The notes beneath the pieces were generated by a model, which saw only the letters and a list, made by a program, of their open reading frames with translations, searched no databases and was not told the origin of the DNA. The position numbers and the translations under genes were made by a program. From the NCBI GenBank assembly GCA_965242545.1, contig OZ251456.1:2947093-3011092 (forward strand): a stretch of DNA of 64,000 bases, given 5' to 3'. Below are positions 6,017 through 36,618 of this stretch, piece by piece. Origin of the DNA: a bacterium (lineage in GTDB: Bacteria > UBA8248). The first letter of the stretch is position 1. Each line of letters begins with the position of its first letter.

Positions 6017-6475
6017 CTAGAGCGCTTTCAGCACGTCCTTCGCGTGTCCGTCCACCTTCACGTTCCTGAAAACCTTTTCGACGACGCCCTTCTCGTCGAT
6101 GATGTAGGTGGTGCGGAAGATGCCGTTGAACTTTCTGCCGAACAGCGTTTTTTCGCCATACGCCCCGTATTTCGATGAAATGACGCCGTCCGGATCCGCC
6201 AGCAGGGTGAACTCCAGGCTCAGCTTCTCCGAAAATTTCTTGTGGCTGACCTCGTTGTCGGGGCTCACGCCGATGACGGTGGCGTTTTTCCGCTCCATCT
6301 TCCGCAGCTCCCTGTTGAAGTCCTGCGCCTCGGTCGTGCATCCGGGCGTGTTGTCCTTGGGGTAGAAGTAGAGGACGACCTTCCGGCCCTTGTATCCCGA
6401 AAGGCGGCGCACCTTGCCGTTCGCGTCCCGGAGGGCGAAGGCGGGCGCCCGGGCTCCCTCTTTCAGCAACGCCAT
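6017..6475 (-). CDS. bcp: Thiol peroxidase Bcp (peroxiredoxin Q)
   Basis: 'KVVLYFYPKDNTPGCTTEAQDF' peroxidatic Cys motif. Start set at 'MALLKEGARAPAF' (6473-6475). Confidence 0.85.
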   Translation of the reverse strand: MALLKEGARAPAFALRDANGKVRRLSGYKGRKVVLYFYPKDNTPGCTTEAQDFNRELRKMERKNATVIGVSPDNEVSHKKFSEKLSLEFTLLADPDGVISSKYGAYGEKTLFGRKFNGIFRTTYIIDEKGVVEKVFRNVKVDGHAKDVLKAL

Positions 6476-12176: not shown

Positions 12177-12192
12177 TGTTCCACGTGGAACA
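12177..12192. promoter_or_regulatory. parS: parS centromere site 1 (TGTTCCACGTGGAACA, perfect 16-bp palindrome)
   Basis: Matches the parS consensus tGTTnCACGTGAAACA (15/16 positions). Located upstream of parA. Confidence 0.75.
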
Positions 12193-12242
12193 ATCAGGGC
12201 TCCCGATCCGACTCCGCCGACCGGATCCGTTGAGACGCGGAT

Positions 12243-12258
12243 TGTTTCACGTGGAACA
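12243..12258. promoter_or_regulatory. parS: parS centromere site 2 (TGTTTCACGTGGAACA)
   Basis: Second parS-like palindrome 66 bp from site 1; one position off perfect symmetry. Confidence 0.7.
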
Positions 12259-12311: not shown

Positions 12312-14240
12312 CTACCCACGATCCGGGGCCGGAAGGCGCGCCCCGCCCCCGGATTTTCCGCTTCGCTTTCGGAGGTGAATTTCCAGCACGGCGACGGCGG
12401 CGGGGGTCACGCCCGAAATGCGGCTCGCCTGCCCGAGCGTCCTCGGACGTATCTGCTCGAGCCGCTGCCGCGCCTCGGCGGTCAGGTGGCTCACGTCGGC
12501 GTAGGAGACGTCCTCGGGTATTTTCACCTTGTCCGCCATTCTCAGATGCGAGACCTGCCGATGCTCCCGCTCGAAATACTCCTTGTATTTTATTTCCGCC
12601 AGAACGTAGCGCCGCGATTCCTCCTCCAGCCCCTCCCAGATCTCCCGAAAGCGGCCCTCGCCCAGGGCGTCGATGCGCATCGCCAGCTCCGGCCCCGCCT
12701 CCGGCCTTCGGAGAATGTCGCCGAGGCTGGCCGGCTTCCTGAGCGCGCCCGAGCCCGCCGCCTCCATGACGGCGCGCGCCTCCGGCTTCGGCCGCGTCAC
12801 CGCGGACTCCGCGTAGCGGACGGCCTCCCGCGCCCGCTTCGCCCGCGCCCCGAAGGCGCGCCAGGTCGCCTCGTCCAGGGAGCCGATTCGGCGACCCAGC
12901 GCCATCAGGCGGAAATCCGCGTTGTCGTGCCGGAGCCGGAGCCTGTGCTCCGCGCGGCTGGTGAACATCCGGTAGGGCTCGGTCGTTCCCTTGGTGACGA
13001 GATCGTCTATCAGGACGCCGATATACGCCTCTTCCCGACCGAGGACGACGGGCGCCTCCCCGCCCGCGCGCCGCGCGGCGTTGACGCCCGCCATGATCCC
13101 CTGCGCCGCCGCCTCCTCGTAGCCGGTCGTCCCGTTCATCTGGCCGGCGTGAAAAAGCCCGGGCGTTCTCTTCGTCATCAGGCTCGCGTCGAGCTCGGTC
13201 GGCTCCACGTAGTCGTATTCCACGGCGTAGCCGGGGCGCATCATCTCGGCGCGCTCCAGGCCCTCTATCGTCCTCAGCATCCGGCGCTGCACGTCCACCG
13301 GCAGGCTGGTGGAAAGCCCGTTCACGTAAATCTCGCGGGTCTCGCGCCCCTCCGGCTCCAGGAATATCTGGTGCTCCCGCTTGCCCTCGAACCGCATGAT
13401 CTTGTCCTCGATGCTCGGGCAGTAGCGGACGCCCACGGCGTCTATCTGGCCGTTGTACATCGGGGCGCGGTCGATGTTCTCGCGGATGATCCCGTGCGTC
13501 CCCGGGTTCGTCCAGGTGATCCAGCAGGGCGTCTGCTCCCGGTTGATGGCGGGCGTCCGGTAGGAGAACGGGAGCGGGGGGTCGTCTCCGGGCTGAAGGG
13601 CGAGGCGGTCGAAATCGACCGACCTCGCGTCTATCCTGGGGGGCGTCCCCGTCTTCATCCGCCCGAGGGAGAAGCCGAGGGAGAGGAGCTGCGCGGTCAG
13701 CTCGTTCGCCGAACCCTCGCCGGCGCGCCCTCCCTCCACCTTCCGCGCCCCGTAGTGAAGAAGGCCGCGCGTGAAGGTTCCCGGCGTGAGAACGAGCGCC
13801 CCGCATTCGTGTATTTCCCCGAAATGATCCTCGAGGCCCGCTATCGCTCCGCCCTTCACGAGAAGCCTTCGCGCCACGCCCTGCTTGAGGAGGAGGTTCT
13901 CCCGGCTCTCCACCGCGTTTTTCATGTAGGCGCGGTAGCGCTGCTTGTCCGCCTGGGCGCGCAGCGCCTGAACGGCGGGGCCCTTCTTCGTGTTGAGCAT
14001 CCGGAACTGGATGCCCGTGGCGTCGATGGCGCGCGCCATCTCGCCGCCGAGGGCGTCCACCTCGCGCACCAGCACGCCCTTGGCCAGCCCGCCGATGGCC
14101 GGATTGCACGACATGAGCCCCACGGTGTCGAGGTTCATGGTGAGCATCAGGGTTCGCGCGCCCAGGCGCGCGGCGGCGAGCGCCGCCTCGCAGCCGGCGT
14201 GTCCGCCGCCCACGACGATGACGTCATGACGAGAAGCCAA
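12312..14240 (-). CDS. mnmG: tRNA uridine 5-carboxymethylaminomethyl modification enzyme MnmG (GidA)
   Basis: FAD-binding N-terminus '[22 protein letters not shown]', ~640 aa, conserved throughout. Confidence 0.9.
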
Positions 14241-14273: not shown

Positions 14274-15701
14274 CTACTTTCCGATGCAGAACGTGGAAAA
14301 AATCCTGTCGAGCAGCGCCTGCCCGTAGTCCTTCCCCAGAAGTCCGGAGAGGGCGGCCTGCGCCTCGTTCAGATGAACCGCCACCAGCTCCGGGGAGAGC
14401 GCCTCCCCGGCGCCCGCCCCGGCGCGCCTCACCGCCTCGAGGCATCTCGAGATTTCGCCGTGGTGCCGCTCGCGCGTGAGGATCGCCTCGGCGCCCGGGA
14501 GCTCCTCGTCCGTCAGGGCGCGCGCCATCGCCTCGCGCAGCGCGGGCAGCCCCTCGCCCGTCAGGGCGGAAACGAAAAGCGGGGCGGGAGCGTCCGGCGC
14601 CGCCTCGCGCAGAAAAGCGCGCGCCCTCTCTTTCTCCTCGCGGGAAATTTTATCCAACTTGTTGAATATAAACATGTTATGACATTTCAAAGCGCGCGCC
14701 TCCCGCGCGGCCCAGGCCGCCTCCCCGTCCCCTTTCGCGGCGTCCATCACCATGAGGCACAGGTCGGCCTCCCCGGCCGCGCGGCGCGCCCGTCCGGCGC
14801 CCTCGAGCTCGACCGGATCCCCGGTCGCCCTCAGCCCCGCCGTGTCGATGAGCCGCGCCGGCGCGCCTCCCAGGTCGCAAACCTCCTCCACCGTGTCCCG
14901 CGTGGTGCCCGGAATCTCGCTCGTGATGGCGCGATCTGCGCCCAGCAGCTCGTTCAGGAGGGTGGATTTTCCGGCGTTGGGCCTTCCGAGGATGACCGCC
15001 CGCGCCCCCTCCCGGAGAATTCTGCCGGAGCGGTAGCTCGCCAGAAGCCTTTCGAGCGACGCCCCGACCTCCGCGAACAGGCGCGCGAGCGCGGCGCTCC
15101 CCATGGGCGCGCCCGACGCCGAGGGGCCCGCGCCCGGCTCGAACTCCTCGGGAAAATCAATCGCCGCCTCCACGTGCGCGCCCGCCTCCACGATTTTCTC
15201 CCAGATCTCCTCCAGCAGGGAGGAAAGGCGCCCGTCCAGGTGACGGAGAGCGGCCTTCGCCGCCTTTTGCGTCTGCGCCGCCACCAGGTCGGCCACGGCC
15301 TCCGCCTGAAGCAGGTCGATCTTCCCCTCCAGGAAGGCGCGCCGGGTGAACTCGCCCGGCCGCGCGGGCCGGGCGCCCGCCTCCCGGGCGAGGCGCAGGA
15401 CGGCTTCCACGATGGCCGGGCCGCCGTGGCAGTACATCTCGACCACGTCCTCGCCGGTGGTCGAGCGGGGGCCGGGGTGATAGATCGCCACGCCCTCGTC
15501 GAAGGCCTCCCCGTCCTCCACGAAGCGCCCCAGCGCGGGGCGCCGCTCCGGGAAGGCGTCCCCTTTCCTCCGGGGCGCGAAAATCCGCGTCAGAATCGGG
15601 AGCGCCCTCTCACCGCTCAAGCGGACGATGGCGATGGCCCCGCGACCGGGCGCCGTGGAGAGCGCGACGATTGTCTCCCTTCCGCCTCCGGGGCCGCCCA
15701 T
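14274..15701 (-). CDS. mnmE: tRNA modification GTPase MnmE (TrmE)
   Basis: G-domain 'GRPNAGKSTLLN', 'TTRD', and C-terminal 'CIGK'. Start set at 'MGGPGGGRETIVALSTAPG' (15699-15701). The track ORF extends a further 57 codons into the repeat region. Confidence 0.85.
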   Translation of the reverse strand: MGGPGGGRETIVALSTAPGRGAIAIVRLSGERALPILTRIFAPRRKGDAFPERRPALGRFVEDGEAFDEGVAIYHPGPRSTTGEDVVEMYCHGGPAIVEAVLRLAREAGARPARPGEFTRRAFLEGKIDLLQAEAVADLVAAQTQKAAKAALRHLDGRLSSLLEEIWEKIVEAGAHVEAAIDFPEEFEPGAGPSASGAPMGSAALARLFAEVGASLERLLASYRSGRILREGARAVILGRPNAGKSTLLNELLGADRAITSEIPGTTRDTVEEVCDLGGAPARLIDTAGLRATGDPVELEGAGRARRAAGEADLCLMVMDAAKGDGEAAWAAREARALKCHNMFIFNKLDKISREEKERARAFLREAAPDAPAPLFVSALTGEGLPALREAMARALTDEELPGAEAILTRERHHGEISRCLEAVRRAGAGAGEALSPELVAVHLNEAQAALSGLLGKDYGQALLDRIFSTFCIGK

Positions 15702-15809
15702 TCGCTCCGTCGTCCGCCCGCCGATGACCCGCGCGCGCCGAATCGGACGCGCGCGAACGAAAGAACCCTGCGCCCAAGCAAATGCCACACCCGAAGAAAA
15801 TAATCTAGC

Positions 15810-17100
15810 ACGCCGCACGGTTCGCGAACCGCCCGTCTTTTCCTTGATGGGATATGGCGCCCGTAGGGACAACCCCCTGTGGTTGTCCTTCGTTGATTAA
15901 ACCCCGGATTCCGGGCCGTCGGGATTGACGCCGTGAATGACGGTGGGCGGTTCACGAATTGTGGGGCGTCCCCGGGGAGGGGATGCCCCTGCAATCGAAC
16001 CGCCAAAACATCGAACGCCCGGAAACGGCGATCGCGAAACCGCAAAGGACAACCACAGGGGGTTGTCCCTACGGAACCGACGAAACCCGCATCACCCCGA
16101 ACGACGCGGGACGCATATATGCGTGGGAAGCGCCTCTCGGCGCGTCACCTACGCAAAACCGCCGCCCGCCTTTTCACCGCCGGGATATTCGCCCGTAGGG
16201 TCCCCTACAACGGAATATCGCCGCCATTTTCACCCTTCCACATTCGGCGCGGCCTGTGGTATGCTTCTCCCGCAGCCAACGCCGGGAGAGGGACGGACGA
16301 TGATCGGTTTCGACACGCTCAAGGCGATGGAATCGCTCCGGGAATCGGGTTTCGAGGAGACCCAGGCGCGCGCCGTCGTAGATACCTTCAAGGACGCCGT
16401 GGGCGGCAGCGTCGCCACGAAAATCGACCTGCAAGAGGCGAAAAGCGAACTCCAAGCTGAAATTCAGGAGGTCAAGGGCGAACTCCAGTCCGAAATTCAG
16501 GAGGTCAAGACCGAACTCCGGGTTGAAATTCAGGGAGTCAAATCCGAGCTCCAAGTTGAAATGCAGGCGCTAAGGGGCGACCTGGAAGCCTCCATCGCGC
16601 GGGTCGAGGCGCGGTCGCAGAAGTTCACGTTCGTCGTGGGGCTTGGCCTCGTGGGACTGAACGTCACCCTCACCTTCGGCCTCCTCAAATTCTTCTTCTC
16701 TCCCTGAAGAAAACTGACGCGAACCGCCCGCTTTTGGTCGCCGAACAAAACGGGACGCATATATGCGTCCCCTACGGGCCGGGGGCGGCGTCATCCGATT
16801 GTAGGGGGCGCATACATGCGCCCCGCACGTAGGGCTGGCGACGACGCGGCGCGTCTTTCGTTCGTCGGGACGCCCGGCGGCGCGATGGGTTTCGCAGGGG
16901 CGGTTCCTTTTCGGATCCGCCCCACGGTTCGCGAACCGCCCGTTGCGTATTTGTTCGTGCGCCGGATCGGATTATCGGCGACCCATGAACGGGACCCGTA
17001 GGGGGCGCATATATGCGCCCCGCCTACAGGTCGGCGATGACGCGGCGCGTCTTTCGTTCGTCGGGACAACACCCTGTGGCTGTCCGTTGCGGAATCGACA
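15810..17100. repeat. Non-coding tract dense in GC-rich palindromic (REP-like) repeats, at least three families
   Basis: Family P1: GGG(G/A)CGCATATATGCG(C/T)CCC, 20-bp perfect palindromes at ~16104, 16748, 16808, 17004, often extended by GTAGGG...CCTAC. Family P2: GGACAACCCCCTGTGGTTGTCC hairpin at ~15876, inverted copy at ~16049, variant at ~17071. Family P3: GGTTCGCGAACCGCCCG at ~15818, 16729, 16928. Also a GACGACGCGGCGCGTCTTTCGTTCGTCGGGAC block at 16840 and 17035. Confidence 0.6.
16300..16707 (+). CDS. DUF1640-like coiled-coil protein with C-terminal membrane anchor
   Basis: Tandem 11-residue repeats 'ELQAEIQEVKG/ELQSEIQEVKT/ELRVEIQGVKS/ELQVEMQALRG', then a transmembrane helix 'FTFVVGLGLVGLNVTLTFGLL'. 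GGAG ribosome-binding site before the ATG at 16300. The track ORF starts at 15937 inside the repeats. Confidence 0.5.
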   Translation: MIGFDTLKAMESLRESGFEETQARAVVDTFKDAVGGSVATKIDLQEAKSELQAEIQEVKGELQSEIQEVKTELRVEIQGVKSELQVEMQALRGDLEASIARVEARSQKFTFVVGLGLVGLNVTLTFGLLKFFFSP

Positions 17101-17376
17101 AAATCCGCGCATTTGCCCGCATTTGCGGTGTCCCGAAAAGAAGCGAAAAAGGTACGATTCGAGCTGAAACGCGCCCGATCCCCGATCAAAAAGGCGTCTT
17201 TTTCCGTCGAACCGAAAACCTTTCAATTCAAATACAATCGAGCGAATTCAAAACGAATTCAGGGCGTTTTCAAGCGAATTCACGCAGCTTTTGCGAACGC
17301 ATAACCGATTGATTCAAAACGAAAAACGCCGAAAGACGGGGAATTTCTTCTGAATAAGGCCCCGGTCGCGCCGCTT

Positions 17377-18396
17377 CTATGAGGCGCCCAGATGGTCGGC
17401 GAGACCGCGGAGCAGTGTCTCGCGCGAGACGGCGCCGACCACCTCGCCCCCGTCCACCACCCGCAACGGCGACTCGCTCGCCAGGGACTTCGGCACCATG
17501 TCCTGAAGAACGGTCCGGCTCGCGACGGCGGGCCCGCCCGCCGCGCCGTCCGGCGGCGTCATGATGGCGCCCGCCGTCACCACCCGACCCCGCCTGGCGT
17601 CCCGCGCGAACACGCGCACGTAGTCGGTGGCCGGGCTGAGCAGAATCTCCTCCGGCACGCCCACCTGGTGAACCACGCCGTCCTTCAGGATGGCGATGCG
17701 GTCGCCTATCTTGAGCGCCTCGTCAAGGTCGTGCGTGATGAACACGATGGTCTTCCTGAGGTCGCGCTGGAGCACGATGAGGTGCTCCTGCATCTGCTTG
17801 CGAATCAACGGATCGAGGGCGCTGAAAGGCTCGTCCATGAGCAGGATTTGCGGGTCCGTGCAAAGGGCGCGCGCCAGCCCCACGCGCTGCTGCATCCCCC
17901 CCGAGAGCTGCGCCGGGTAGGCGTCCTCGTAGCCGGCGAGCCCGACGTCCTCTATCCAGCGCATCGCCCGGCGGGCGCGCTCCTTGAGCGGCACGCCCTG
18001 CACGTCGAGGCCGTAGCCCGTGTTCTCCAGCACCGTCAGGTGAGGGAAGAGCGCGAAGCGCTGGAACACCATGCTCGTGGTCCCGCGGCGAAACGCGATG
18101 AGCTCCTCCTGGGAGAGCTGGAGGATGTCCCTGCCCTCGACCAGCACCTGGCCGGCGGTCGGGTCGATCAGCCGGTTGACGTGGCGGATGAGGGTCGATT
18201 TCCCGGAGCCGGAAAGCCCCATGACCACGAAAATCTCCCCGCTCTCGACGGAGAGGCTGACGTCCTTGAGACCGAGCGCGCAGCCCGTCCTGGCCAGCAG
18301 GTCATCCTTGCCGGCGCCCTCCCGCGCCAGGGCGAGGGCCTCCTCCGGGGCGTCCCCGAATATCTTGTAGACGCTTCGTATCTCGATCAGCGGCAT
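17377..18396 (-). CDS. proV: Glycine betaine/proline ABC transporter ATP-binding protein ProV
   Basis: Walker A 'GLSGSGKST', signature 'LSGGMQQRV', Walker B 'LLMDEPFSALD', C-terminal CBS-like extension. Confidence 0.9.
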   Translation of the reverse strand: MPLIEIRSVYKIFGDAPEEALALAREGAGKDDLLARTGCALGLKDVSLSVESGEIFVVMGLSGSGKSTLIRHVNRLIDPTAGQVLVEGRDILQLSQEELIAFRRGTTSMVFQRFALFPHLTVLENTGYGLDVQGVPLKERARRAMRWIEDVGLAGYEDAYPAQLSGGMQQRVGLARALCTDPQILLMDEPFSALDPLIRKQMQEHLIVLQRDLRKTIVFITHDLDEALKIGDRIAILKDGVVHQVGVPEEILLSPATDYVRVFARDARRGRVVTAGAIMTPPDGAAGGPAVASRTVLQDMVPKSLASESPLRVVDGGEVVGAVSRETLLRGLADHLGAS

Positions 18397-18400
18397 CGGC

Positions 18401-19306
18401 TCAGCCCTCCCCCGTCGTCCTGATGAGCCGCCTTCCGTAGGCCTGCGTCACGCGGTCCATCACGATGGCGAGCAACACGATTCCCACGCCCGCCTCGAGC
18501 GCGCGCCCGACGTTGAGCTGCTGGAGACCCAGGAGCACCTCGTTTCCGAGACCGCGGGTTCCGATCATCGAGGCGATGACCACCATCGAGAGCGCCATCA
18601 TCGTGGTCTGGTTGATTCCCTGCATGATGTTGGAGAGCGCCATGGGAATCTGGACGCCGAGGAGCTTCTGCCGCTTGCTGGCGCCCATGGCGTCCGACGC
18701 CTCGACGATGTCCTCGTCCACCAGGCGAATGCCGAGGTCGGTGAGGCGAATCACGGGCGGGACGGCGTAGATCACCGTGGCGAAGACGGCGGGCACCGCG
18801 CCCAGGCCGAACAGCATGATCGCCGGAATGAGATAGACGAAGCTCGGCATGGTCTGCATGAGGTCGAGCACCGGCAGGACGAAGTTCCGCATCCGATCGC
18901 TCCTCGAAATCGCGATGCCGATCGGGATGCCGATGACGATGCAGATGATGGTGGAGACCAGCATGACCGAGAGGGTCATCATCGCGTAGTCCCAGAGCTT
19001 GGGATCCACGAGTCCGATGCAGAGCAGGCAGCCGGCCACGAGCGCGGTCACGCCCCGCTTGCGGCCGCCGGAGACGTAGGTGATCGCGACCACGGCGGCG
19101 AACACGACGATCCACGGCAGATCGCGCAGGAAGTGCTCCAGGCCGACCAGCAGCGCGAGGAGGCTGTCCGATACGGTCTCGAAAACGACGCCGTATTCCG
19201 AGACCAGCCATTCCACGAAAGCGTTGGCCCACTTGTTGAGCGGCAGGTTCAGGGCCTTGGGCCACTCAACCGCCCATTCGGGAAGCAGTCCCCTCAAAAA
19301 CGACAT
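18401..19306 (-). CDS. proW: Glycine betaine/proline ABC transporter permease ProW
   Basis: Multi-transmembrane permease with EAA-like loop 'EASDAMGASKRQKLLGVQIPMA'. Start is 4 bp from the proV stop. Confidence 0.9.
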   Translation of the reverse strand: MSFLRGLLPEWAVEWPKALNLPLNKWANAFVEWLVSEYGVVFETVSDSLLALLVGLEHFLRDLPWIVVFAAVVAITYVSGGRKRGVTALVAGCLLCIGLVDPKLWDYAMMTLSVMLVSTIICIVIGIPIGIAISRSDRMRNFVLPVLDLMQTMPSFVYLIPAIMLFGLGAVPAVFATVIYAVPPVIRLTDLGIRLVDEDIVEASDAMGASKRQKLLGVQIPMALSNIMQGINQTTMMALSMVVIASMIGTRGLGNEVLLGLQQLNVGRALEAGVGIVLLAIVMDRVTQAYGRRLIRTTGEG

Positions 19307-19352: not shown

Positions 19353-20402
19353 TCAGGCGGAGGCGAGGGCCGCCTCGACCTTTTTGGCGACGTCGGCCGG
19401 CACCCATTTCTTCCAGACCTTGTTGGTCTTGAGAAAGTGGATGGCGGTCGCCTTGGCGTCGCCGCCTGCCTCCTTCTCCAGATAGGCCAGCGCCTTCGAG
19501 ACGACGCTGGACGGCAGGGTGTACTTATCGAGGAAGGCGATGATCTTCGGATTCTCCGCCGCGAACTTCGCGGTGACCGACTTCGGCAGCTCCACCGACG
19601 GATAGGCGACCGCCTTCTTCGGGTCGCCCATCGCCTCCTCGCCGCCTTTCTTGAGCGCCGTGACGTGCTTCATCATCTCGTCCCAGTCGGCCTTGTTCCA
19701 GGCGGGCTCCTCGAGCTTGACGAGGTCGAGCTGGCCCAGGAGCGGCGTCGGCGCCCAGTAGTATGCCAGCACGGGCTTCTTCTTGATGTAGGCGCCCTTG
19801 ATGGCCGCCGCCAGCGCGCCGCCCGAACCCGGCCGGAAGTTCGTGTAATGCTTCTCGAGTCCGTAGGCGCGGAGCTTCACCGTGTTGATGAGCTCGCAAC
19901 TCCAGCCCGGGATGCAGTTCACGAACCGGCCCTTGGAGGGCTCCTCGGGATCCTTGAAGAGATGCTTGTATTTCGGGAGATCGAACACCGATTTGAGGCC
20001 CGGGTTCGCCTTCTGGATGAAGCGCGGGATATACCAGCCCTGCGCGCTGTCCGGCGTGTTGACGCTCAGACGCTTGATCTTTTTGCTTTTGAGGGCGGCG
20101 TCGTATTGATCCTTGATGTTCTCGTACCAGAGCTCCATGACCAGATCGTTCTTGCCCTTGTAGTGCGCGGCCATGATCGGCACGGTGCCGCCGTAAGTCA
20201 TCCTGACACTGCAGCCGTAGCCGTGCCGCAGGATGAAGGCGGTCACCTGGTCGTGGAAGTTCGCGCTGTCCCAGTTGAAGTCGCCGATGTGAACCTTGCA
20301 GGCGGCCTTCGCCTCCCCGGGCGCGGCTAGGGGGGACGCCGCGACGAGGGCGGCGAAAGCGGAAATCGCGAGAATCCTGAACTTCATGGCTTTGAGTCTC
20401 AT
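19353..20402 (-). CDS. proX: Glycine betaine-binding periplasmic protein (ProX/OpuAC), copy 1
   Basis: Signal peptide 'MRLKAMKFRILAISAFAALVAASPLAAPGEA', then a substrate-binding fold (NWDSANFH..., GWYIPRF...). Start chosen at 20402; the track extends 20 codons further. Confidence 0.85.
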   Translation of the reverse strand: MRLKAMKFRILAISAFAALVAASPLAAPGEAKAACKVHIGDFNWDSANFHDQVTAFILRHGYGCSVRMTYGGTVPIMAAHYKGKNDLVMELWYENIKDQYDAALKSKKIKRLSVNTPDSAQGWYIPRFIQKANPGLKSVFDLPKYKHLFKDPEEPSKGRFVNCIPGWSCELINTVKLRAYGLEKHYTNFRPGSGGALAAAIKGAYIKKKPVLAYYWAPTPLLGQLDLVKLEEPAWNKADWDEMMKHVTALKKGGEEAMGDPKKAVAYPSVELPKSVTAKFAAENPKIIAFLDKYTLPSSVVSKALAYLEKEAGGDAKATAIHFLKTNKVWKKWVPADVAKKVEAALASA

Positions 20403-20526
20403 GGCTGGTCCCCCGTCATTGCGCGCGCGGCGCGGTGAAAAACGGACGAATCTTTTCTCCAATCACCAGCCATCATACACGGACGGGCGCGAAACGCAAA
20501 CCGCCCCGCCTTCGCGCGGGCGCGTC

Positions 20527-21558
20527 TCAGGCGGAGGCGAGCGCCGTCTCGACCTTTTTGGCGACGTCGGCCGGCACCCATTTCTTCCAGACCTTGTTGG
20601 TCTTGAGGAAGTGGATGGCGGTCGCCTTGGCGTCCCCGCCCGCCTCCCTCTCCAGGTAGGCCAGCGCCTTCGAGACGACGCCGGACGGCAGGGTGTACTT
20701 ATCGAGGAAGGCGATGATCTTCGGATTCTCCGCCGCGAACTTCGCGGCGGCCGACTTCAGCAGCTCCGCCTTCCGGTAGGCGGTGGCTTTCCGGGGGTCG
20801 CCCATGGCGCTCTCCCCGTTCTTCCTTACCGCCGCCGCGCGCTTCATGATCTCGCTCCAGTCCGCTTCATTCCAGGCGGGCTCCTCGAGCTTGACGAGGT
20901 CGATCTGTCCCTGGAGCGCCGTCGGCGCGTAGAAATAGGTGAGCGCCGGCTTCTTCTTGAGATAGACGCCCTTGATGGCCGCCGTAAGCGCGCCGAGCGA
21001 ACCGGGGCGGGTGTTGGTGAAGTGCTTCTCGAGTCCGTAGGCGCGGAGCTTCACCGTGTTGATGATCTCGCAATACCAGCCCGGAATGCAGTTCACGAAC
21101 CGGCCCTTGGAGGGCTCCTCGGGATCCTTGAAGAGATGCTTGTATTTCGGGAGATCGAACACCGACCTGAGGCCCGGGTTCGCCTCCTGGACGAAGCGCG
21201 GGATATACCAGCCCTGCTCGCCGTCCGGCGTGTTGACGCCCAGCATCCTGATATTGCCGCTCTTCACGGCGGCGTCGTATTCGGCCTTGATGTTGTCGTA
21301 CCACACCTCCATGATCAGATCGTTCTTCCCTTCGTAGTGCGCCGTCATAATCGGCACCGAGGCGCCGTAAATCAGTCTCACCCTGCAGCCGTAGCCGTGC
21401 CGCAGGATGAAGGCGGCCATCTGGCTGTGGAAGTTGGCGCTGTCCCAGTTGAGGTCGCCGATGCGGACCTTGCAGGCGGCCTTCGCCTCCCCGGGCGCGG
21501 CGAGGGGGGACGCCAGAAGTGAAGCGAAGACAACAATCGCAAGAGCTCCGAGTCTCAT
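20527..21558 (-). CDS. proX: Glycine betaine-binding periplasmic protein (ProX/OpuAC), copy 2 (tandem paralog)
   Basis: Roughly 80% identical to copy 1 along the full length; the C-terminal ~60 aa are almost identical. Confidence 0.85.
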   Translation of the reverse strand: MRLGALAIVVFASLLASPLAAPGEAKAACKVRIGDLNWDSANFHSQMAAFILRHGYGCRVRLIYGASVPIMTAHYEGKNDLIMEVWYDNIKAEYDAAVKSGNIRMLGVNTPDGEQGWYIPRFVQEANPGLRSVFDLPKYKHLFKDPEEPSKGRFVNCIPGWYCEIINTVKLRAYGLEKHFTNTRPGSLGALTAAIKGVYLKKKPALTYFYAPTALQGQIDLVKLEEPAWNEADWSEIMKRAAAVRKNGESAMGDPRKATAYRKAELLKSAAAKFAAENPKIIAFLDKYTLPSGVVSKALAYLEREAGGDAKATAIHFLKTNKVWKKWVPADVAKKVETALASA

Positions 21559-22870: not shown

Positions 22871-23486
22871 CTAATGCACGTATTGGCCGCCGTTCACGTC
22901 GATGGTGACGCCCGTGACGTAGCCCGAGCCCGGCGTGGAGAAATACCAGATCGCGTCCGCCACGTCCTCGGGCTCGCCGCCGAAGCCCACGGGCAGGCTC
23001 GCCACGATTTCCGGCACGCGCTCCTTGTGGACCAGGCGAAAACGCCTGGTGAGCGTCGCGCCCGGCGCAACGGCGTTCACCGTGACGCCGTGAGGCGCGA
23101 GCTCCACGGCGAGCCTTCTGGTGAACCCCTGCATGGCGGACTTCGAGGCGCTGTAGGCCAGCGAGATGTTCGGCAGGGCGTCGCGCGCGGAAATGGAGGA
23201 GACGTTCACGATGCGGCCGTAGCCCCTCCTCTTCATCGGGGCCGCGGCCGCACGGCTGGCGAAATAGCAGCTCGTCAGGTTCCAGTCCATGATCTTTTCC
23301 CACTCGGCCTCGTCCAGATCCTCAATGCCCGGGTTGTCCACGAAGCCGCCCGCGCTCCCGGTCCCGGCCCATGATGGCCACCCGCGCGCCCTCTCCGGCG
23401 AGGCGGATCGCCGCCGCCAGGCCGATGCCGTCCGTGGCGCCCGTGATGATGGCGACCCGGCCCTTTATCGAGGATCTTTCATGCAC
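22871..23486 (-). pseudogene. Short-chain dehydrogenase/reductase paralog, disrupted (internal ~150-bp deletion plus frameshift)
   Basis: The N-terminal 'HERSSIKGRVAIITGATDGIGLAAAIRLAGEGARVAIMG' (GTG start at 23484-86) and the C-terminal 'VDNPGIEDL...NVSSISA...YSASK...VNGGQYVH' are in different frames. The segment equivalent to 'LDVD...ILVNCAGG' of the intact neighbour is missing. Confidence 0.5.
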
Positions 23487-23497
23487 GGAAGCGGCTC

Positions 23498-24250
23498 CTA
23501 GTGCGCGTATCTGCCGCCGTTCACGTCGAGCGTCACGCCCGTCACGTAGCGCGCTCCGGGGCGAACGAGATACCACACGGCATCGGCGACGTCGGCGGCT
23601 TCCGCCACGCGGCCCAGCGGGATCTTCGAGACGATCTCGGGCAGTCTCTCCCTGTGCAGGGCGGCCACCCGGGGGGAGAGCACGACGCCGGGCGCCACCG
23701 TGTTCACCGTGACGCCGCAGGGCGCAACCTCGACCGCCAGCCGTCTGCAAAAACCGAACAGGCCGGCCTTGGCCGCGCTGTAGGCGAGGCCCGTCTCCAG
23801 AATGCCGTCGCGGCCCGACAGGGAGGAGACGTTCACGATGCGGCCGTAGCCCGCTTTCTTCATGGCGGGCGCGGCCTCGCGCGCGCAAAGGTAGCCGCTC
23901 TTGAGATTCAGATCCACGACGCGGCGCCACTCGGCCTCGCCCAGATCCTCAATGTCCGGGTTGTCCACGAAGCCGCCCGCGCAGTTCACCAGAATGTCGA
24001 GGCGGCCCCACGCGCCGAGCGTCTCTCCGAAGGCGGCGCCGACCTGCTCCTCGGACGCGGCGTCCGTCCTGATGAAGCGAACCGCCTCGCCCATTCGCCG
24101 CGCGGCCGCCTCGCCCGCCGCCGCGTCAACGTCCAGCAAGGCGACGCGCGCCCCCTCCTGCGCGAGACGCTCGACGACGCCCGCGCCAATGCCGGCCGCG
24201 CCGGCCGTGACGACGGCCACGTGTCCCCGAATCGAAGATCTGTCTTCCAT
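23498..24250 (-). CDS. SDR-family oxidoreductase (FabG-like)
   Basis: 'VVTAGAAGIGAG' Rossmann motif, 'NCAGG', catalytic 'YSAAK', C-terminal 'VNGG'. Confidence 0.8.
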   Translation of the reverse strand: MEDRSSIRGHVAVVTAGAAGIGAGVVERLAQEGARVALLDVDAAAGEAAARRMGEAVRFIRTDAASEEQVGAAFGETLGAWGRLDILVNCAGGFVDNPDIEDLGEAEWRRVVDLNLKSGYLCAREAAPAMKKAGYGRIVNVSSLSGRDGILETGLAYSAAKAGLFGFCRRLAVEVAPCGVTVNTVAPGVVLSPRVAALHRERLPEIVSKIPLGRVAEAADVADAVWYLVRPGARYVTGVTLDVNGGRYAH

Positions 24251-28959: not shown

Positions 28960-29265
28960 CGGCGTCAAGGCCGATTCCTTCGTTTCACGAAGGCGCGCCT
29001 GTCAAGAACCGGGCGTAAGGTAGCCGCCAAAGCTCCGATTGTCAAGAACCCCCCGCCGCGCCGGAAGCCGCTCATCCTGAAAAAATCACGGCGGCGCCTT
29101 CTTTTCGCCCGCCGCCTCCGCCGAGGAGCCGGCGTTTTTGTTCGCAATCAACAAAAATTTCGGAAAACGCCTCTTTTTTCGTGAAAGGCGCTTGCCTTGA
29201 AGGTCGTTTTGTGGAAAACTCCCTTCTTTCATCAGATTCGCGTCTCGCCCTTGTGGAAAAACGAT
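28960..29265. promoter_or_regulatory. Candidate oriC / dnaA promoter region with DnaA-box-like repeats
   Basis: Two 'TGTGGAAAA' sites (reverse complement TTTTCCACA, one mismatch from TTATCCACA) at ~29210 and ~29253. Two 'TGTCAAGAACC' sites at ~29000 and ~29040. Inverted 'TTTCACGAA/TTCGTGAAA' pair. Classic rpmH-dnaA intergenic location. Confidence 0.35.
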
Positions 29266-29326
29266 GGCCGTCGCATGGACCGAGGACGCCTCGCCACGCA
29301 ATGGCCTTTGCCCATCGGTTCACGCC

Positions 29327-30658
29327 ATGACGAGTCTCTGGCTTCGCTGCGCGGAAAAAATCCAAGAAGAGGTCTCCGCGAAAACGTTTGATCGCTGGTT
29401 CGCCGGGCTCAGGGAGACGGACGCGAACGAGTCCTCCCTAACGCTCCAGGCGCCCAATTCGTTCACGGCGGGCACCCTGCGCTCGCGGTATTGGGGCATT
29501 CTCATCGACATCCTCAAGCAGGAAGCCGGGCCGGGCGTGTCGCTCATCCTCTCCTCGAACAACGAGGAAAACGGCGCGGGCGCGCCGGACACGGCCGAAG
29601 AGGCTCCGCCGGAGAGCCGCCGCGCGCCCGGACGCCCCGACTTTCTGAATCCCAAATACCATTTCGGGAATTTCGTGGTGGGCGCGTCGAACGAGTTCGC
29701 CCACGCCTGCGCCACCCGCGTGGCGGACGGCATCGAAGCCACGTTCAACCCGCTATTCATCTACGGCGGCGTGGGGCTGGGAAAAACCCATCTCCTGCAC
29801 GCCATCGCCCAGCGGATTCTCGACCGGCGCCCCGAGGCGCACGTCTTCTACACCTCGGCGGAGAACTTCATCAACGATCTCATCGCCTCGATCAGGCGAA
29901 ACCGCATGGCCGCGTTCAGAAACAAATACAGAAAAGCGGACGCGCTGATGGTAGACGACGTCCAGTTCATCGCGGGCAAGGAGCGCACCCAGGAGGAGTT
30001 CTTCTTCACCTTCAACGCCCTCCACGAGGGGAGAAAGCAGATCATCATCACGAGCGACAAAATGCCGAAGGACACGCCGGGACTGGAGGAGCGCCTTCAG
30101 GCGCGCTTCGTATGGGGGATGATGGCGGACATCGGCGCGCCCGACTTCGAGACCAAGGTGGCCATCCTGCAAAAGAAAGCAGGCGAGCGGGGGTTTTTCT
30201 TGTCCCGGGAAGTCGCCCACTACATCGCCGAGAAGGTTCGCTCCAACATCAGGGAGCTCGAAGGCTGCCTCATCAAACTCATCTTTCACGCCTCCCTGTA
30301 CAACATCGATATCGATCTGCCCGTCGCGCAGGAGGTTCTGCGGGGCATCATCCGGGACCCCGCACGCAACTCGACGGTGGACAACATCCAGAGAATCGTC
30401 GCCGCCCATTTTCAAATCCGCGTCGCCGACATCAAATCGAAAAACCGCTCGCGCTGCTTCGCCACCCCCCGGCAAATCGCCATGTATCTTTCGAGAAAAC
30501 TCACGACCGCCTCGACCACGGACATCGGACGGCGCTTCGGCGGCAAGGATCATTCCACGGTGATTCACTCCACCAACAAGATCGAGGAACTGGTCAAGAC
30601 GGACCAGGCCACCTCGGACGCCATTCAGGCGATTCGCCAGAAGATAGAACTCTCCTGA
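29327..30658 (+). CDS. dnaA: Chromosomal replication initiator DnaA
   Basis: AAA+ Walker A 'GGVGLGKTHLLHAI', Walker B 'LMVDDVQF', C-terminal DNA-binding domain. Start at 'MTSLWLRCAEKIQEE' (29327). Confidence 0.9.
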   Translation: MTSLWLRCAEKIQEEVSAKTFDRWFAGLRETDANESSLTLQAPNSFTAGTLRSRYWGILIDILKQEAGPGVSLILSSNNEENGAGAPDTAEEAPPESRRAPGRPDFLNPKYHFGNFVVGASNEFAHACATRVADGIEATFNPLFIYGGVGLGKTHLLHAIAQRILDRRPEAHVFYTSAENFINDLIASIRRNRMAAFRNKYRKADALMVDDVQFIAGKERTQEEFFFTFNALHEGRKQIIITSDKMPKDTPGLEERLQARFVWGMMADIGAPDFETKVAILQKKAGERGFFLSREVAHYIAEKVRSNIRELEGCLIKLIFHASLYNIDIDLPVAQEVLRGIIRDPARNSTVDNIQRIVAAHFQIRVADIKSKNRSRCFATPRQIAMYLSRKLTTASTTDIGRRFGGKDHSTVIHSTNKIEELVKTDQATSDAIQAIRQKIELS

Positions 30659-31026
30659 AAAGAAAAGATCAAGGGCAAAAACGGGCGGAATAAAGCAAAA
30701 TCCTCTCGTCCGGGAGCGGAAAAACCGCCCAGAGGGCGCGAGAGCGCAAAAAACGCCCCAGCGACCGCCCAAACGCCGGGGCGGCCCGCGCCACACACAA
30801 TGCGGCGCAAACCGGAAAATCCGGGGCGCGCGCCGAAAAACGGCGCGCAGAGAAGCCCATGGTGAGCCGTTCTCGGTCGAGAGCGACTCCCAAATCATGG
30901 AAAATCCAGGCAAACGAGCGAAGCGTTTATGAAGGGCTGTCGCAAGGGCGGGCGTTCATGAGCCGCATGATATTTTGCGCGTCCGTTGCTTTGGAGGGGG
31001 GGCATGGTAGTACTGCTTTCGCCTGA

Positions 31027-31132
31027 GGCAATGGCGGGAGGCCAGCCATGAGACTCAAAACCATGAAGTTCAAGATTCTCGCGATCTCCGTTTTCGCCGC
31101 CCTCGTCGCGGCGTCGCCCCTCGCCGCGCCCG
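31027..31132 (+). repeat. Displaced copy of the proX promoter-proximal region, ribosome-binding site and signal peptide
   Basis: ~105 bp nearly identical to the 5' end of proX copy 1 (reverse complement of ~20380-20425 plus the signal-peptide codons): '...GCCAGCCATGAGACTCAAAACCATGAAGTTCAAGATTCTCGCGATCTCC...'. Encodes MRLKTMKFKILAISVFAALVAASPLAAP, then diverges exactly at the signal-peptidase site. Confidence 0.6.
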
Positions 31133-31162
31133 CGCATTCGGAGTCTCCCGCTCCGAGAGCTG

Positions 31163-32242
31163 TTGACCACCAGAGGTTTCCTCCTCCTTCCCAGCGGTTT
31201 TATCCTCCTCTTCCCGGCTGGTTTGTTCCCCTCCCTGAGCAGCGCAGGCGTCGGCAGGTGGGGGCCTGCATCAAGACCTATTGCCTTTCCTCGCTCTTTT
31301 CTCCGCATGGCGGTTGTTCCCCTGCTCTTTGCGCACAGTGTTGCGAGGCTTTTTACCGATCTCCCGATTCGCCTATGGTTTCTCATTGCCGCTCTGTTCG
31401 GTGTCCTCTCCCTCTCGGCTCTTGGGCCTCTCATAATACTTACTCACTGCCAAGCGATTTTTCGCCGACCAAAAGACTCGCTCAGAGATTACGGGCTTGG
31501 TCTCAGGCGGGCATTCGAGTTGATGAAGCAGGGAGTTGCAATTGAACGAATCAACACGGGTGAAGAGGCTGTGGTGAGCAACCGTACCCGCGAGGAAGTG
31601 GAGGGAGGAACGATGAGCGAAAATCAAAAGTGGTACGGAAAGACCATCATAGAAACCATAAACGGAAGAGAATTCATCGACAGGAGGATTTTACCGGGGA
31701 CCTTCGAGGATTCATACCAAGTAGTGAAAGACGTCGGGACGACACAAGAAGAAATAATCGGAAGCGTCCTGATGTCCTCGTCAGGATGGAGATACATGGC
31801 AGACGAAATAGAACGGAAATACGTGATCAAAAAACTCAGGGAATATCGCGCCGCGAAAATACCGGCCAGAAGATACCTCAACGAACTGAAACGAGAAGTC
31901 GGGCAAGGAAACATCACCCTGGAAAAAGCGGAGAAACTAGCCACAAAATACTTGGCGGATCGCGATCAGTACCCGAAAAGACTAGTCGAAAGATGCCTTG
32001 CGGAACTGGTACGAAAATCCTATATAAGGGGAGGCATCACCCTGGAAATAACAACGGAAGTGGCCAAAAAATACCATATCGACAAGACCTATGAGGAACT
32101 GTGCGCAAATTACCTTGCCAAAAACCCAGCAAATTCCCTTGTCAAAATAGAAATCCCGGAAGAAGAAATATCGTGGACGGGATGCCTTGCGATCATCGGA
32201 ATAATAACTCTTTCGATCTTAGTGCAAACGTGTGGAGCATGA
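31163..32242 (+). CDS. Hypothetical membrane protein in the low-GC insert (start uncertain)
   Basis: The 3' ~700 nt are clearly lower GC (~48%) with AT-rich codon usage, in contrast to the surroundings. N-terminal transmembrane helices, a C-terminal transmembrane helix 'GCLAIIGIITLSILV', and a long helical K/E-rich middle. Possible starts at 31163, 31307 (MAVVPLL) or 31612 (MSENQKW). Confidence 0.45.
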   Translation: MTTRGFLLLPSGFILLFPAGLFPSLSSAGVGRWGPASRPIAFPRSFLRMAVVPLLFAHSVARLFTDLPIRLWFLIAALFGVLSLSALGPLIILTHCQAIFRRPKDSLRDYGLGLRRAFELMKQGVAIERINTGEEAVVSNRTREEVEGGTMSENQKWYGKTIIETINGREFIDRRILPGTFEDSYQVVKDVGTTQEEIIGSVLMSSSGWRYMADEIERKYVIKKLREYRAAKIPARRYLNELKREVGQGNITLEKAEKLATKYLADRDQYPKRLVERCLAELVRKSYIRGGITLEITTEVAKKYHIDKTYEELCANYLAKNPANSLVKIEIPEEEISWTGCLAIIGIITLSILVQTCGA

Positions 32243-32586
32243 GCGGCGGGAGCAAAGGAATCCGCAGACTACAAATCTACGAGGATGAGGGCGCATGGCG
32301 CATCATGCATTGGAGATTTGAAACCGGAGACTGGCACCACGAGGGCCCGTTTGAAACCGTCTATCAGGCAACGGACAAGGCGGCGGAAGTGGCCGGCAAA
32401 AGCGTAGGGCGCGAACTGGCGGAACTGGCTACGATCGTAACAATCGCCATGATGGCCGCCCGGGCGCTGAATGAGGAAGGATGGAGCATCACGCGCTCCG
32501 GGCTGGGATATAGCACAACCACAAAATCAAAGCCGAAAGGCGAACCGCGAAACGGCTCCGAAAGCGCAGAAGCAAGAGCGCGATAG
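32239..32586 (+). CDS. Hypothetical small protein (115 aa), translationally coupled to the upstream gene
   Basis: ATGA start/stop overlap with the 31163..32242 gene. Starts 'MSGGSKGIRRLQIYEDEGAWRIMHWRFETGDWHHEGPFE...'. The track ORF starts 46 codons earlier in the overlap. Confidence 0.4.
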   Translation: MSGGSKGIRRLQIYEDEGAWRIMHWRFETGDWHHEGPFETVYQATDKAAEVAGKSVGRELAELATIVTIAMMAARALNEEGWSITRSGLGYSTTTKSKPKGEPRNGSESAEARAR

Positions 32587-33004
32587 CGCACAGACTGGCG
32601 GTCGAAACCAAAGAGAATCCGATCATAAAGCGGCTCATCCGCAAGGGCGGAAACCCGCGAGACATCGGGAGAATCTACGGCGCGTCTCAATACGCCGTCC
32701 TGAAACGGACGGCGAGGGTAAAAAACGGGAATCAACCGTTGCGATTCTCACCTGCCTACAAAGATCGCGAAGGTTGTGGAAAGGGTTGTGAAAAAGGATG
32801 TTAGAATCCCATGGCTCCATCCCGCTCCACGTAAAAACGATCGGCGAAATGCGCTTATCCACACATGAGATCACGCCCCGTCTCTCGGGAAAGGCGCATT
32901 TTTTCAAACTTTCGGGCGGTTTTTCACAAATTCACCGACCCTGCTACTACTGCTTTTCAAATGTTGAATCAGAATTCAGAAGCAACAGCTCCTGAGAATA
33001 TCCC

Positions 33005-34155: not shown

Positions 34156-36618
<2,463 letters not shown>

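Follow-up and report, generated by a model that had tools for sequence, protein, structure and literature searches.

A proV–mnmE spacer filled with GTAG-tagged REP hairpins in an uncultured Nitrospinota-related bacterium, and its link to a RAYT transposase

Repetitive extragenic palindromic sequences (REPs) of the GTAG superfamily, and the bacterial interspersed mosaic elements (BIMEs) known from Escherichia coli and Pseudomonas, are small G+C-rich hairpins that bear GTAG, unpaired, at one of their ends; several extragenic families share one genome, and copies form head-to-head and tail-to-tail dimers as well as larger clusters into which pieces of the adjoining DNA are incorporated (Di Nocera et al. 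2013, PMC3733652). Doublets of two inverted REPs are described as REP doublets forming hairpins (REPINs; Bertels & Rainey; PMC3337134). REP-associated tyrosine transposases (RAYTs) of TnpA-REP subclass 2.4 (Quentin et al. 2018, PMC6006769), which equals group 4 in the RAYT classification of Bertels et al. (2017, PMC5581495), are scattered over many phyla and have in-frame REP insertions between their HuH and Y motifs as well as 'double-foot' REPs, a term from the former study (PMC6006769); the 16-mers flanking group 4 genes have a modest copy number, with a median of 14 occurrences replicon-wide (PMC5581495). Here we analyse a tract of palindromic repeats between mnmE and proV, at 15811–17085 of a 64-kb stretch of contig OZ251456.1 (hereafter the window).

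The tract is, in all likelihood, a BIME-like nest of GTAG-tagged REPs, partners of a subclass 2.4/group 4 RAYT encoded elsewhere in the chromosome. It represents a known type of element in a new, uncultured host related to Nitrospinota/Tectomicrobia, and no new device. REP/BIME-like elements were among the possibilities listed by an earlier sequence-only reading of the window, and it is this one that the cognate RAYT gene supports.

Architecture of the hairpin tract

About 14 hairpin modules lie within 15811–17085, surrounding a gene for a 135-aa coiled-coil/transmembrane (TM) protein. Because the TrmE_N domain begins at residue 67 of the long mnmE open reading frame (ORF), the start of mnmE, initially placed at 15872, was moved to the ATG at 15701, which leaves 15702–16299 (598 nt) and 16708–17376 (669 nt) as non-coding DNA up to the end, at 17377, of the ABC ATPase gene (proV) of a glycine-betaine-type transporter. 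Module units measure 20–30 nt and have perfect or near-perfect stems. The features of the tract are listed below (window coordinates; L112 and L114 are loci ~98% identical to the window).

15811–15836, + strand: P3 copy (GGTTCGCGAACCGCCCG at 15819–15835), a degenerate GTAG-GGGCGGTTCGCGAACCGCCC that has lost its GTAG
15861–15890, + strand: P2 REP, CCGTAG-GGACAACC-CCCTGT-GGTTGTCC, left arm of a dimer in head-to-head arrangement, GTAG tags outside (−7.6 kcal/mol, z = −3.7)
15945–15992, − strand: composite of a GCAG-GGGCATCCCCTCCCCGGGGACGCCC hairpin (15964–15992; −10.9 kcal/mol) followed by ACAATTCGTGAACCGCCC, a P3 half
16045–16074, − strand: P2 REP, right arm of the head-to-head dimer, 100% complementary to 15861–15890
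16097–16152, − strand: REP doublet, CCGAACGACGC-GGGACGCATATATGCGT joined to GGGAAGCGCCTCTCGGCGCGTCAC-CTAC, a free-standing copy of a RAYT-internal REP
16195–16208, no strand: GTAGGGTCCCCTAC, an 'empty' double-foot REP with two facing tags and hardly any stem, present in L114 too
16300–16707, + strand: small gene, 135 aa, with a CCDC90-like/DUF1640 N-terminus and a C-terminal TM helix
16718–16775, − strand: P3 half, then CTTTTGGTCGCCGAACAAAAC, then P1 REP GGGACGCATATATGCGTCCC-CTAC (16752–16775; hairpin −9.6 kcal/mol, z = −5.9)
16801–16824, + strand: P1' REP, GTAG-GGGGCGCATACATGCGCCCC, pairing with 16752–16775
16837–16871, + strand: first copy of a 35-nt block, a GACGCGGCGCGTC hairpin followed by a T-rich tail, terminator-like
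16894–16942, + strand: GCAG-GGGCGGTTCCTTTTCGGATCCGCCC hairpin (16894–16925; −11.7 kcal/mol) followed by a P3 copy (16926–16942)
16998–17027, no strand: P1 double-foot REP, GTAG-GGGGCGCATATATGCGCCCC-GC-CTAC (−11.1 kcal/mol)
17033–17085, + strand: second copy of the 35-nt block (17033–17067), overlapping a degenerate P2 REP (17064–17085) whose tag has decayed to GTCG
17106–17358, no strand: lower-GC, REP-free spacer with CGAATTC repeats at the limit of the tract, outside the REP cluster; 93% conserved in L112

P1 and P2 have a common design in which GTAG (sometimes GCAG) is followed by GG(G), a perfect stem of 8–10 bp and a loop of 2–6 nt. P3 shows the tag-bearing design in related genomes, with fully tagged versions in the loci of OZ241326.1 and in L189, and its copies in the window have lost the tag. 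The repeats were confirmed where the sequence-only reading had placed them, apart from the third P3 copy. Three of its four P1 20-mers were recovered as such (GGGACGCATATATGCGTCCC, 16752–16771; GGGGCGCATACATGCGCCCC, 16805–16824; GGGGCGCATATATGCGCCCC, 17002–17021), the fourth being a 17-nt copy (16108–16124), and the two-sided GTAG…CTAC nesting described as frequent is found at 16998–17027 only, the remaining P1 copies carrying a one-sided tag. The three P2 copies, one of them inverted, stand (15867–15888, + strand; 16047–16068, − strand; 17064–17085, + strand with 2 mismatches), and the first two are parts of longer, perfect inverted arms of 30 nt at 15861–15890 and 16045–16074, 154 nt apart. 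A count of three was slightly generous for P3, with two exact copies (15819–15835 and 16926–16942), a half copy (16718–16735) and a degenerate inverted half (15945–15958). The duplicated block, first given as 40 bp, measures 35 nt at 97% identity (16837–16871 and 17033–17067) and belongs to a larger duplicated unit of ~70 nt that includes one P1 copy. Families exceed the minimum of three originally proposed, since GCAG-GGGCATCCCCTCCCCGGGGACGCCC (15964–15992, − strand), GTAG-GTGACGCGCCGAGAGGCGC (16127–16152, − strand), GCAG-GGGCGGTTCCTTTTCGGATCCGCCC (16894–16925, + strand) and GTAGGGTCCCCTAC (16195–16208) come in addition; the nest holds at least five or six stem variants, some of them as REPIN-like inverted doublets.

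The numbers of P1 and P2 copies expected by chance were both 0.00 in dinucleotide-preserving shuffles of the window, and no further copies of any of the families were found outside the tract in the 64-kb window. Likewise, when the window was scanned for GTAG tags leading into a stem of 8 bp or more, strong matches fell in the tract only, plus one borderline intragenic match at 36318; the tract contains eight strong GTAG- or GCAG-tagged hairpins, and the other spacers of the window hold none of similar quality. Folded as single-stranded DNA (ssDNA), the P1, P2 and GCAG hairpins reached −7.6 to −11.7 kcal/mol (z = −3 to −6). Position 4 of the P1 stem is A:T, G:C, T:A or C:G across copies and genomes, with the pairing always compensated.

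The P1 copies at 16752–16775 (− strand) and 16801–16824 (+ strand) form a tail-to-tail doublet with the GTAG tags inside and a 25-nt spacer. This REPIN-like pair is kept in L112 and, with a 21-nt spacer, on both flanks of the RAYT gene of L197, a close relative described below, and occurs in diverged form in the more distant relative L198; as in REPINs (PMC3337134), two inverted REPs stand 21–25 nt apart and are preserved as a unit, beside a RAYT in L197 and in the same spacer in L112 and L198. Group 4 RAYTs are not among the groups with highly abundant REPINs (Bertels et al. 2017). The composite at 16894–16942 is an inverted, diverged counterpart of that at 15945–15992 (73% complementary). 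In E. coli BIMEs two types of REP, oppositely oriented, alternate regularly and are joined by defined linkers; the tract is not built in this way: its orientations run +,−,−,−,−,+,+,±,+ with variable spacers, and we use 'BIME-like' in the loose sense of a REP cluster only. The likeness to GTAG REPs, of which 24 families have been published (PMC3733652), is one of architecture. The tract further differs from usual GTAG REPs in its uncultured host lineage, in that part of the nest lies between divergent genes, and in a density that looks low and patchy, with one nest in 64 kb.

The two P2 arms had been taken to bracket a unit resembling a miniature inverted-repeat transposable element (MITE), and a structured RNA had also been proposed. 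Perfect 30-nt arms at such a distance would suit either explanation of the 214-nt unit that they delimit. Its interior, however, is made up of other REP modules. A target-site duplication is not seen, 3 changes are found in the right arm in L112, and the whole unit is repeated in none of the fetched loci. As the arms are dissociated in L114, the bracketed unit is not a conserved mobile unit, and it is better described as a head-to-head REP dimer enclosing other REP modules. Rfam 15 at gathering thresholds gave no matches in the window, and a permissive setting returned only noise in the tract (E = 0.21 and 0.34, far below threshold); a tRNA scan also found nothing. We regard a structured non-coding RNA or a MITE as close to untenable here.

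Dispersal of the repeats and the cognate RAYT

A scan of species-representative genomes with the P1 20-mer GGGRCGCATAYATGCGYCCC, in which counts per genome are lower bounds, recovered at least 108 genome stretches from more than 10 phyla. Hosts include Bacillota (Gemmiger/Subdoligranulum), Nitrospinota, Zixibacteria, Aminicenantes, Patescibacteria (a Moraniibacteria metagenome-assembled genome (MAG) of the candidate phyla radiation (CPR)), Bacteroidota, Chloroflexota (Dehalococcoidia, Ktedonobacteraceae), Actinomycetota (Solirubrobacteraceae) and Proteobacteria, complete MAG chromosomes among them. GTAG or CTAC directly abuts P1, nearly always on one side, in 100 of the 116 copies in other genomes. 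The exact GTAG-tagged 20-nt hairpin was seen in loci L002–L109, including those of gut Gemmiger/Subdoligranulum and of a CPR bacterium; in Gemmiger, a longer conserved repeat, …ACGGGTAAACCGCAC-P1-CTACAAACCTGCCGGAAA…, has P1 as its core. The occurrence of exact P1 across more than 10 phyla suggests horizontal spread of a RAYT–REP pair, and the REP/RAYT papers cited here contain no such case of one specific stem of this kind in very distant phyla.

Among the P1-bearing genomes, the relatives of our organism have chromosomes with an mnmE 72–77% identical to that of the window, the next best matches being Nitrospinota/Tectomicrobia at 60–65%. P1, P2 and P3 co-occur in these chromosomes as well, and in OZ241326.1 they stand together in dense arrays at five widely separated positions, accompanied by half a dozen further GTAG-hairpin variants; composite orders of the window recur there, for instance a P3 half followed after ~20 nt by P1. 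Repeats are also dispersed over several bins of CBDCRP…, OY843592.1 and OZ242260.1, and over four spacers within 21 kb of L198. Three of these L198 spacers lie elsewhere than between proV and mnmE (13476, 18216–18444 and 20911; between mnmG and parA, between a CN_hydrolase and a cupin gene, and after a redoxin gene), and the homologous spacers of the window are devoid of REPs, so that REP positions are lineage-specific. The sequence-only reading had held that ordinary genome-wide REPs with no local enrichment would speak against any special significance of the tract. This largely applies: the motifs belong to ordinary REP families dispersed in related and unrelated genomes, although in the window they are strongly clustered.

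The E. coli RayT of the annotated K-12 record served as a phmmer query against every ORF in the fetched loci. It gave weak matches in two loci that had been retrieved by the P1 20-mer alone, and these, used as queries in turn, led to a third. All three RAYTs (L020, L031 and L035) lie beside P1 and contain the motifs MPNHIHG (HUH) and WQRSFYD (Tyr), and the two that were scanned, L020 and L031, match Pfam Y1_Tnp (PF01797). In L020 (OZ242260.1) the RAYT unit appears by eye to be AT-richer than its flanks, and is bracketed by a direct repeat of ~80 nt (gttcatccgttatagtgaggg…cgcgcggggga; 789–868 and 1616–1695), possibly a leader sequence or a duplicated target. With a profile built from the three proteins, more than 7,600 relatives were retrieved, some of them JGI-named 'REP element-mobilizing transposase RayT'. 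Among 80 metagenome loci of this clade there were 52 genes whose HUH and Tyr motifs could both be placed in a single ORF, and 48 of these 52 contain an in-ORF GTAG hairpin between them. REPs flanking the gene share their stem with the internal REP in several loci, and the stems include P1, P3 and P2-like variants.

The closest link to the window is provided by L197, in which the window's own modules, with their order kept, lie on both sides of a RAYT gene. Each flank reads GTAG-GGGCGACCTCTCCTCGGGGACGCTCC hairpin joined to AATTCGTGAACCGCCCG, a CCTTTGGTCACCGAACGGCGC linker, P1 on the minus strand, a 21-nt spacer and GTAG-GGGGCGCATACATGCGCCCC. The composite at 15945–15992 is 86–88% identical to both RAYT flanks (L197 5787–5835 and 6776–6824), and the module order of 16718–16775 is that of both flanks, with 87% identity to L197 6810–6869. 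The in-frame REP inside the L197 RAYT ORF (6330–6374) is 89% identical to window 16106–16150, which identifies the seemingly truncated P1 at 16108, together with its adjoining hairpin, as a free copy of the internal doublet; an earlier interpretation of this P1 as a breakpoint was dropped.

No RAYT gene or pseudogene was detected in the window by phmmer with E. coli RayT and the clade RAYTs against ORFs of at least 80 aa, and blastn of the L197 REPtron (a RAYT with its flanking REPs) matched REP modules only, revealing no RAYT coding remnants. A RAYT of this clade is encoded elsewhere in the source chromosome: RAYT P0217, which matches Pfam Y1_Tnp and falls in the same 90% cluster as the L197 protein, lies on a contig of 3,087,465 nt, the length also of the contig that encodes a protein 100% identical to the product of the window's small gene, and its HUH–Tyr linker, GRDACMRG, is a degenerate P1 translation. 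Through L197 and P0217 the nest is tied to a cognate RAYT flanked by the same REPs, for all families but P2. The RAYT has in common with subclass 2.4 the HUH and Tyr motifs, cognate flanking REPs, an in-frame REP between the motifs, double-foot REPs and a clade spread over many phyla; it differs from the described cases in lying outside the window, and its placement in subclass 2.4/group 4 is based on these common features.

How these hairpins might be produced is suggested by the E. coli TnpA-REP work cited in PMC8266576 and PMC6006769. Each REP unit, when in ssDNA, would fold into a G+C-rich hairpin, and the RAYT would recognise the hairpin together with the unpaired GTAG guide, cut the DNA and rejoin it. 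Copies would build up slowly, preferably beside existing ones. With several copies in one spacer, recombination or slippage would duplicate, delete and shuffle modules. Catalysis by the present RAYT is proposed by analogy with E. coli, and the direction and mechanism given for single events are putative. The idea in the sequence-only reading that the palindromes are binding sites of a palindrome-recognising protein may hold only insofar as the RAYT is that protein.

An array of operators or partition sites for a duplex-binding protein near the origin (ParB/parS-like, or a regulator of proVWX or mnmE) is, by comparison, extremely improbable. The tract does lie ~15 kb from the minimum of cumulative GC skew and 4 kb from parAB, and P3 GGTTCGCGAACC is a perfect 12-bp palindrome. 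Two canonical parS sites, however, are found elsewhere, in the mnmG–parA spacer (12177–12192, TGTTCCACGTGGAACA, and 12243–12258, TGTTTCACGTGGAACA), and P3 was rejected as a parS candidate, the canonical sites lying within 12177–12258; the palindromic motifs also occur at unrelated loci in unrelated phyla, and the asymmetric GTAG tag, the compensated stems and the linkage to a RAYT argue for recognition of an ssDNA hairpin over that of a duplex operator. Both parS sites are kept in L112 and L114 (inverted match).

Several observations weigh against the interpretation of the tract as a RAYT-partnered REP nest. The P3 copies of the window are untagged and fold weakly (−4 kcal/mol, z = −1.2), and the tag is also lost in the P2 copy at 17064. 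Divergent genes enclose the first half of the nest, whereas REPs are usually found downstream of genes, and within the 64-kb source window all copies sit in one spacer. P2 is not present at the L197 REPtron, and no cognate P2 RAYT was found in the lineage, P2-like stems occurring only elsewhere in the clade. The RAYT is placed in subclass 2.4 by shared features and not with the hidden Markov models of the authors of that scheme, which makes the assignment provisional. Finally, L112 and L114 appear to be short-read metagenome contigs that end in or near repeats, and assembly errors at REPs could therefore mimic some of the rearrangements presented in the next section.

History of the proV–mnmE spacer and its small gene

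The age of the nest can be judged from L198, from a 357-kb contig (ctg358415_7x_l, possibly a long-read assembly) with an mnmE 76% identical to that of the window and ~78–81% identity at the DNA level. Window and L198 share the order yidC, FliG_C-domain protein, methyltransferase, short-chain dehydrogenases/reductases (SDRs), OpuAC, permease, ABC ATPase and mnmE-mnmG-parA-parB-bactofilin. This conserved order implies that the proVWX segment is ancestral to the lineage, and the insertion boundary that had been envisaged beside mnmE is not borne out as a recent event. The L198 proV–mnmE spacer has 433 nt and lacks the small gene, yet REPs are already found in it: one is P3-like, one is of the double-foot type, and there is a tail-to-tail P1-like doublet with compensated stems (GGGCCGC…GCGGCCC and GGGTCGC…GCGACCC). 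L113 (84% nucleotide identity) has a P1-like REP upstream of mnmE, its contig stopping inside a P2; a REP nest is thus present in the same spacer at 84% (L113) and at ~78% (L198) identity. Given the synteny with L198 and the REPs in its 433-nt spacer, the tract is an old, expanding REP nest that is being reshuffled by REP-bounded events, and not a scar of recent insertion.

Reshuffling is observed at the strain level. Window, L112 and L114 show three different REP arrangements, with REP-bounded insertions and deletions (indels); the differences of the two relatives from the window and from one another lie inside the tract. L112 lacks exactly 16125–16751, with the small gene, a segment bounded in the window by the 28-nt direct repeat CCGAAC-N5-GGGACGCATATATGCGT, and also 16854–17105, bounded by GACGCGGCGCG repeats. 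In L114 the small gene lies between two complete P1 copies in direct orientation and the remaining modules are reordered. On the proV side, L112 (1–418, the counterpart of the window beyond 17358) departs altogether from the window 18 nt before the stop codon of proV and has, in place of proV, a plus-strand gene with a signal peptide resembling those of the twin-arginine translocation (Tat) pathway. Either the rearrangement is real or the assembly is chimeric at the nest of repeats; L001, from another sample, has the junction of the window at 99.7% identity. Of the recombination hot-spot scars suggested by the sequence-only reading, the REP-bounded indels among ~98%-identical relatives remain, and a recent-insertion scar does not. 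On the RAYT-partnered REP reading, an ancestral REP-bearing proV–mnmE spacer of ~430 nt would have grown to ~1.7 kb by recombination or slippage between modules, and REP recombination or slippage would also have bounded the gain or loss of the small DUF1640 gene.

This gene (16300–16707) is a real gene and not itself a REP. Its product matches PF07798 (E = 6.6e-9, 36.3 bits, cut-off 33.5), four 33-nt tandem repeats (16432–16563) encode four 11-aa coiled-coil units, and P0121, on the 3,087,465-nt contig, is 100% identical to it. The family is multi-copy: the source contig encodes three to four members and OZ241326.1 encodes four. Small DUF1640 proteins of the lineage (P0121–P0145) range from 100 to 165 aa, a difference due purely to the number of 11-residue repeats, with the N-terminal 48 residues and the C-terminal TM segment almost invariant. 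A 140-aa ORF of L198 (16777–17199) was considered as a paralogue and rejected on comparison. A metagenome scan for the family found no relatives of the small protein, and tblastn found no copies of the gene in any of the REP-bearing loci.

It might be argued that the REPs are active substrates of recombination, the spacer a hot spot of gene gain and loss, and the DUF1640 gene a cassette moved by the RAYT or by REP–REP recombination. The exact gap in L112 with its 28-nt repeat, the two full direct P1 copies around the gene in L114, its absence from the L198 spacer and the paralogues on the source contig and on OZ241326.1 are in line with such a cassette, as is a paralogue at another locus (L115) that is also bracketed by REPs and whose nucleotide similarity is confined to the segment from promoter region to stop codon. 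On the other side, the more distant DUF1640-like gene near the L197 RAYT has no adjoining REPs, REPs accumulate in any long spacer so that co-location may be passive, the evidence from L112 and L114 comes from short-read contigs, and neither a circular or excised form nor a target-site signature was seen. We therefore consider a cassette of this kind unlikely, and still more so a scenario in which an actively remodelling REP/REPIN population and its RAYT mobilise REP-bracketed DUF1640 cassettes between nests, with the sharing of P1 reflecting horizontal spread of a RAYT with its in-frame REP.

The hairpins may alternatively serve mainly the host. Between the small gene and proV, which converge, they would terminate transcription in both directions or stabilise 3' ends, and upstream of mnmE they would act as an insulator. 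REPs have been reported as regulators in 3' untranslated regions in E. coli (PMC3733652, and the preprint bioRxiv 10.64898/2026.03.23.713779). The tract contains 8 terminator-like sites, compared with 2.7 ± 1.7 in shuffles, sensibly placed between the small gene and proV; among them, a minus-strand P1 is followed by GTTTTGTT, and two plus-strand GACGCGGCGCGTC-TTTCGTT blocks lie downstream of the small gene. Local regulation leaves unexplained, however, why these sequences are found around and inside a transposase gene and recur in different phyla, and the module content varies between ~98%-identical strains. As a principal explanation it is possible but doubtful; it is compatible with the REP explanation and secondary to it. 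Hairpins that end the transcripts of the small gene and of proV are plausible in a secondary role, and any insulation from mnmE would be secondary as well. The interpretation with the best support is that of REP DNA, selfish or domesticated, which a RAYT maintains.

Genomic setting and significance

The window, ~66% GC, surrounds a replication origin, with the cumulative GC-skew minimum at ~31–33 kb and dnaA, recF, gyrB and gyrA to the right of it. On the minus strand, mnmE (14274–15701) is followed by mnmG (12312–14240). At the skew minimum, between dnaA (29264–30658) and recF (33005–34120), 30659–33004 forms a 2.3-kb stretch with 52–59% GC; dnaN is missing from its usual dnaA–dnaN–recF position in the window, and the sole long ORF of the stretch (31163–32242) has a lysine-rich second half and no Pfam match. 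This stretch is probably oriC plus foreign DNA. Next to the REP nest, the spacer at 17106–17358 contains three CGAATTC motifs (17243–17283; spacings of 11 and 21 nt) and a CGCGCATTTGCCCGCATTTGCGG motif; in OZ241326.1 (L064) the latter motif is found, too, after a P2 REP upstream of a gene. This spacer may be an orphaned promoter or operator region. Two OpuAC substrate-binding genes lie in tandem (19353–20462 and 20527–21558); L198 has a single gene, ~81% identical to both, which points to a tandem duplication in the lineage of the window. A 156-aa SDR ORF (22871–23341), which is limited to the C-terminal portion of the domain (profile positions 89–234) and adjoins an intact SDR gene (23498–24250), is likely a truncated pseudogene, given that L198 has a full 252-aa SDR gene at the same place.

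With regard to mechanism, the outcome is mostly a clean negative, the tract being explained without a new one. The analysis adds a documented REP/RAYT system of subclass 2.4 type for an uncultured Nitrospinota-related lineage, accounts for assembly breaks beside mnmE in this lineage and advises caution when ORFs or regulatory RNAs are called in such tracts. It also indicates that a REP nest in one spacer can outlast ~20% nucleotide divergence and yet be reshuffled among ~98%-identical strains, and the PANK22-1 metagenome series is a possible natural data set for following the dynamics of REPs and REPINs.

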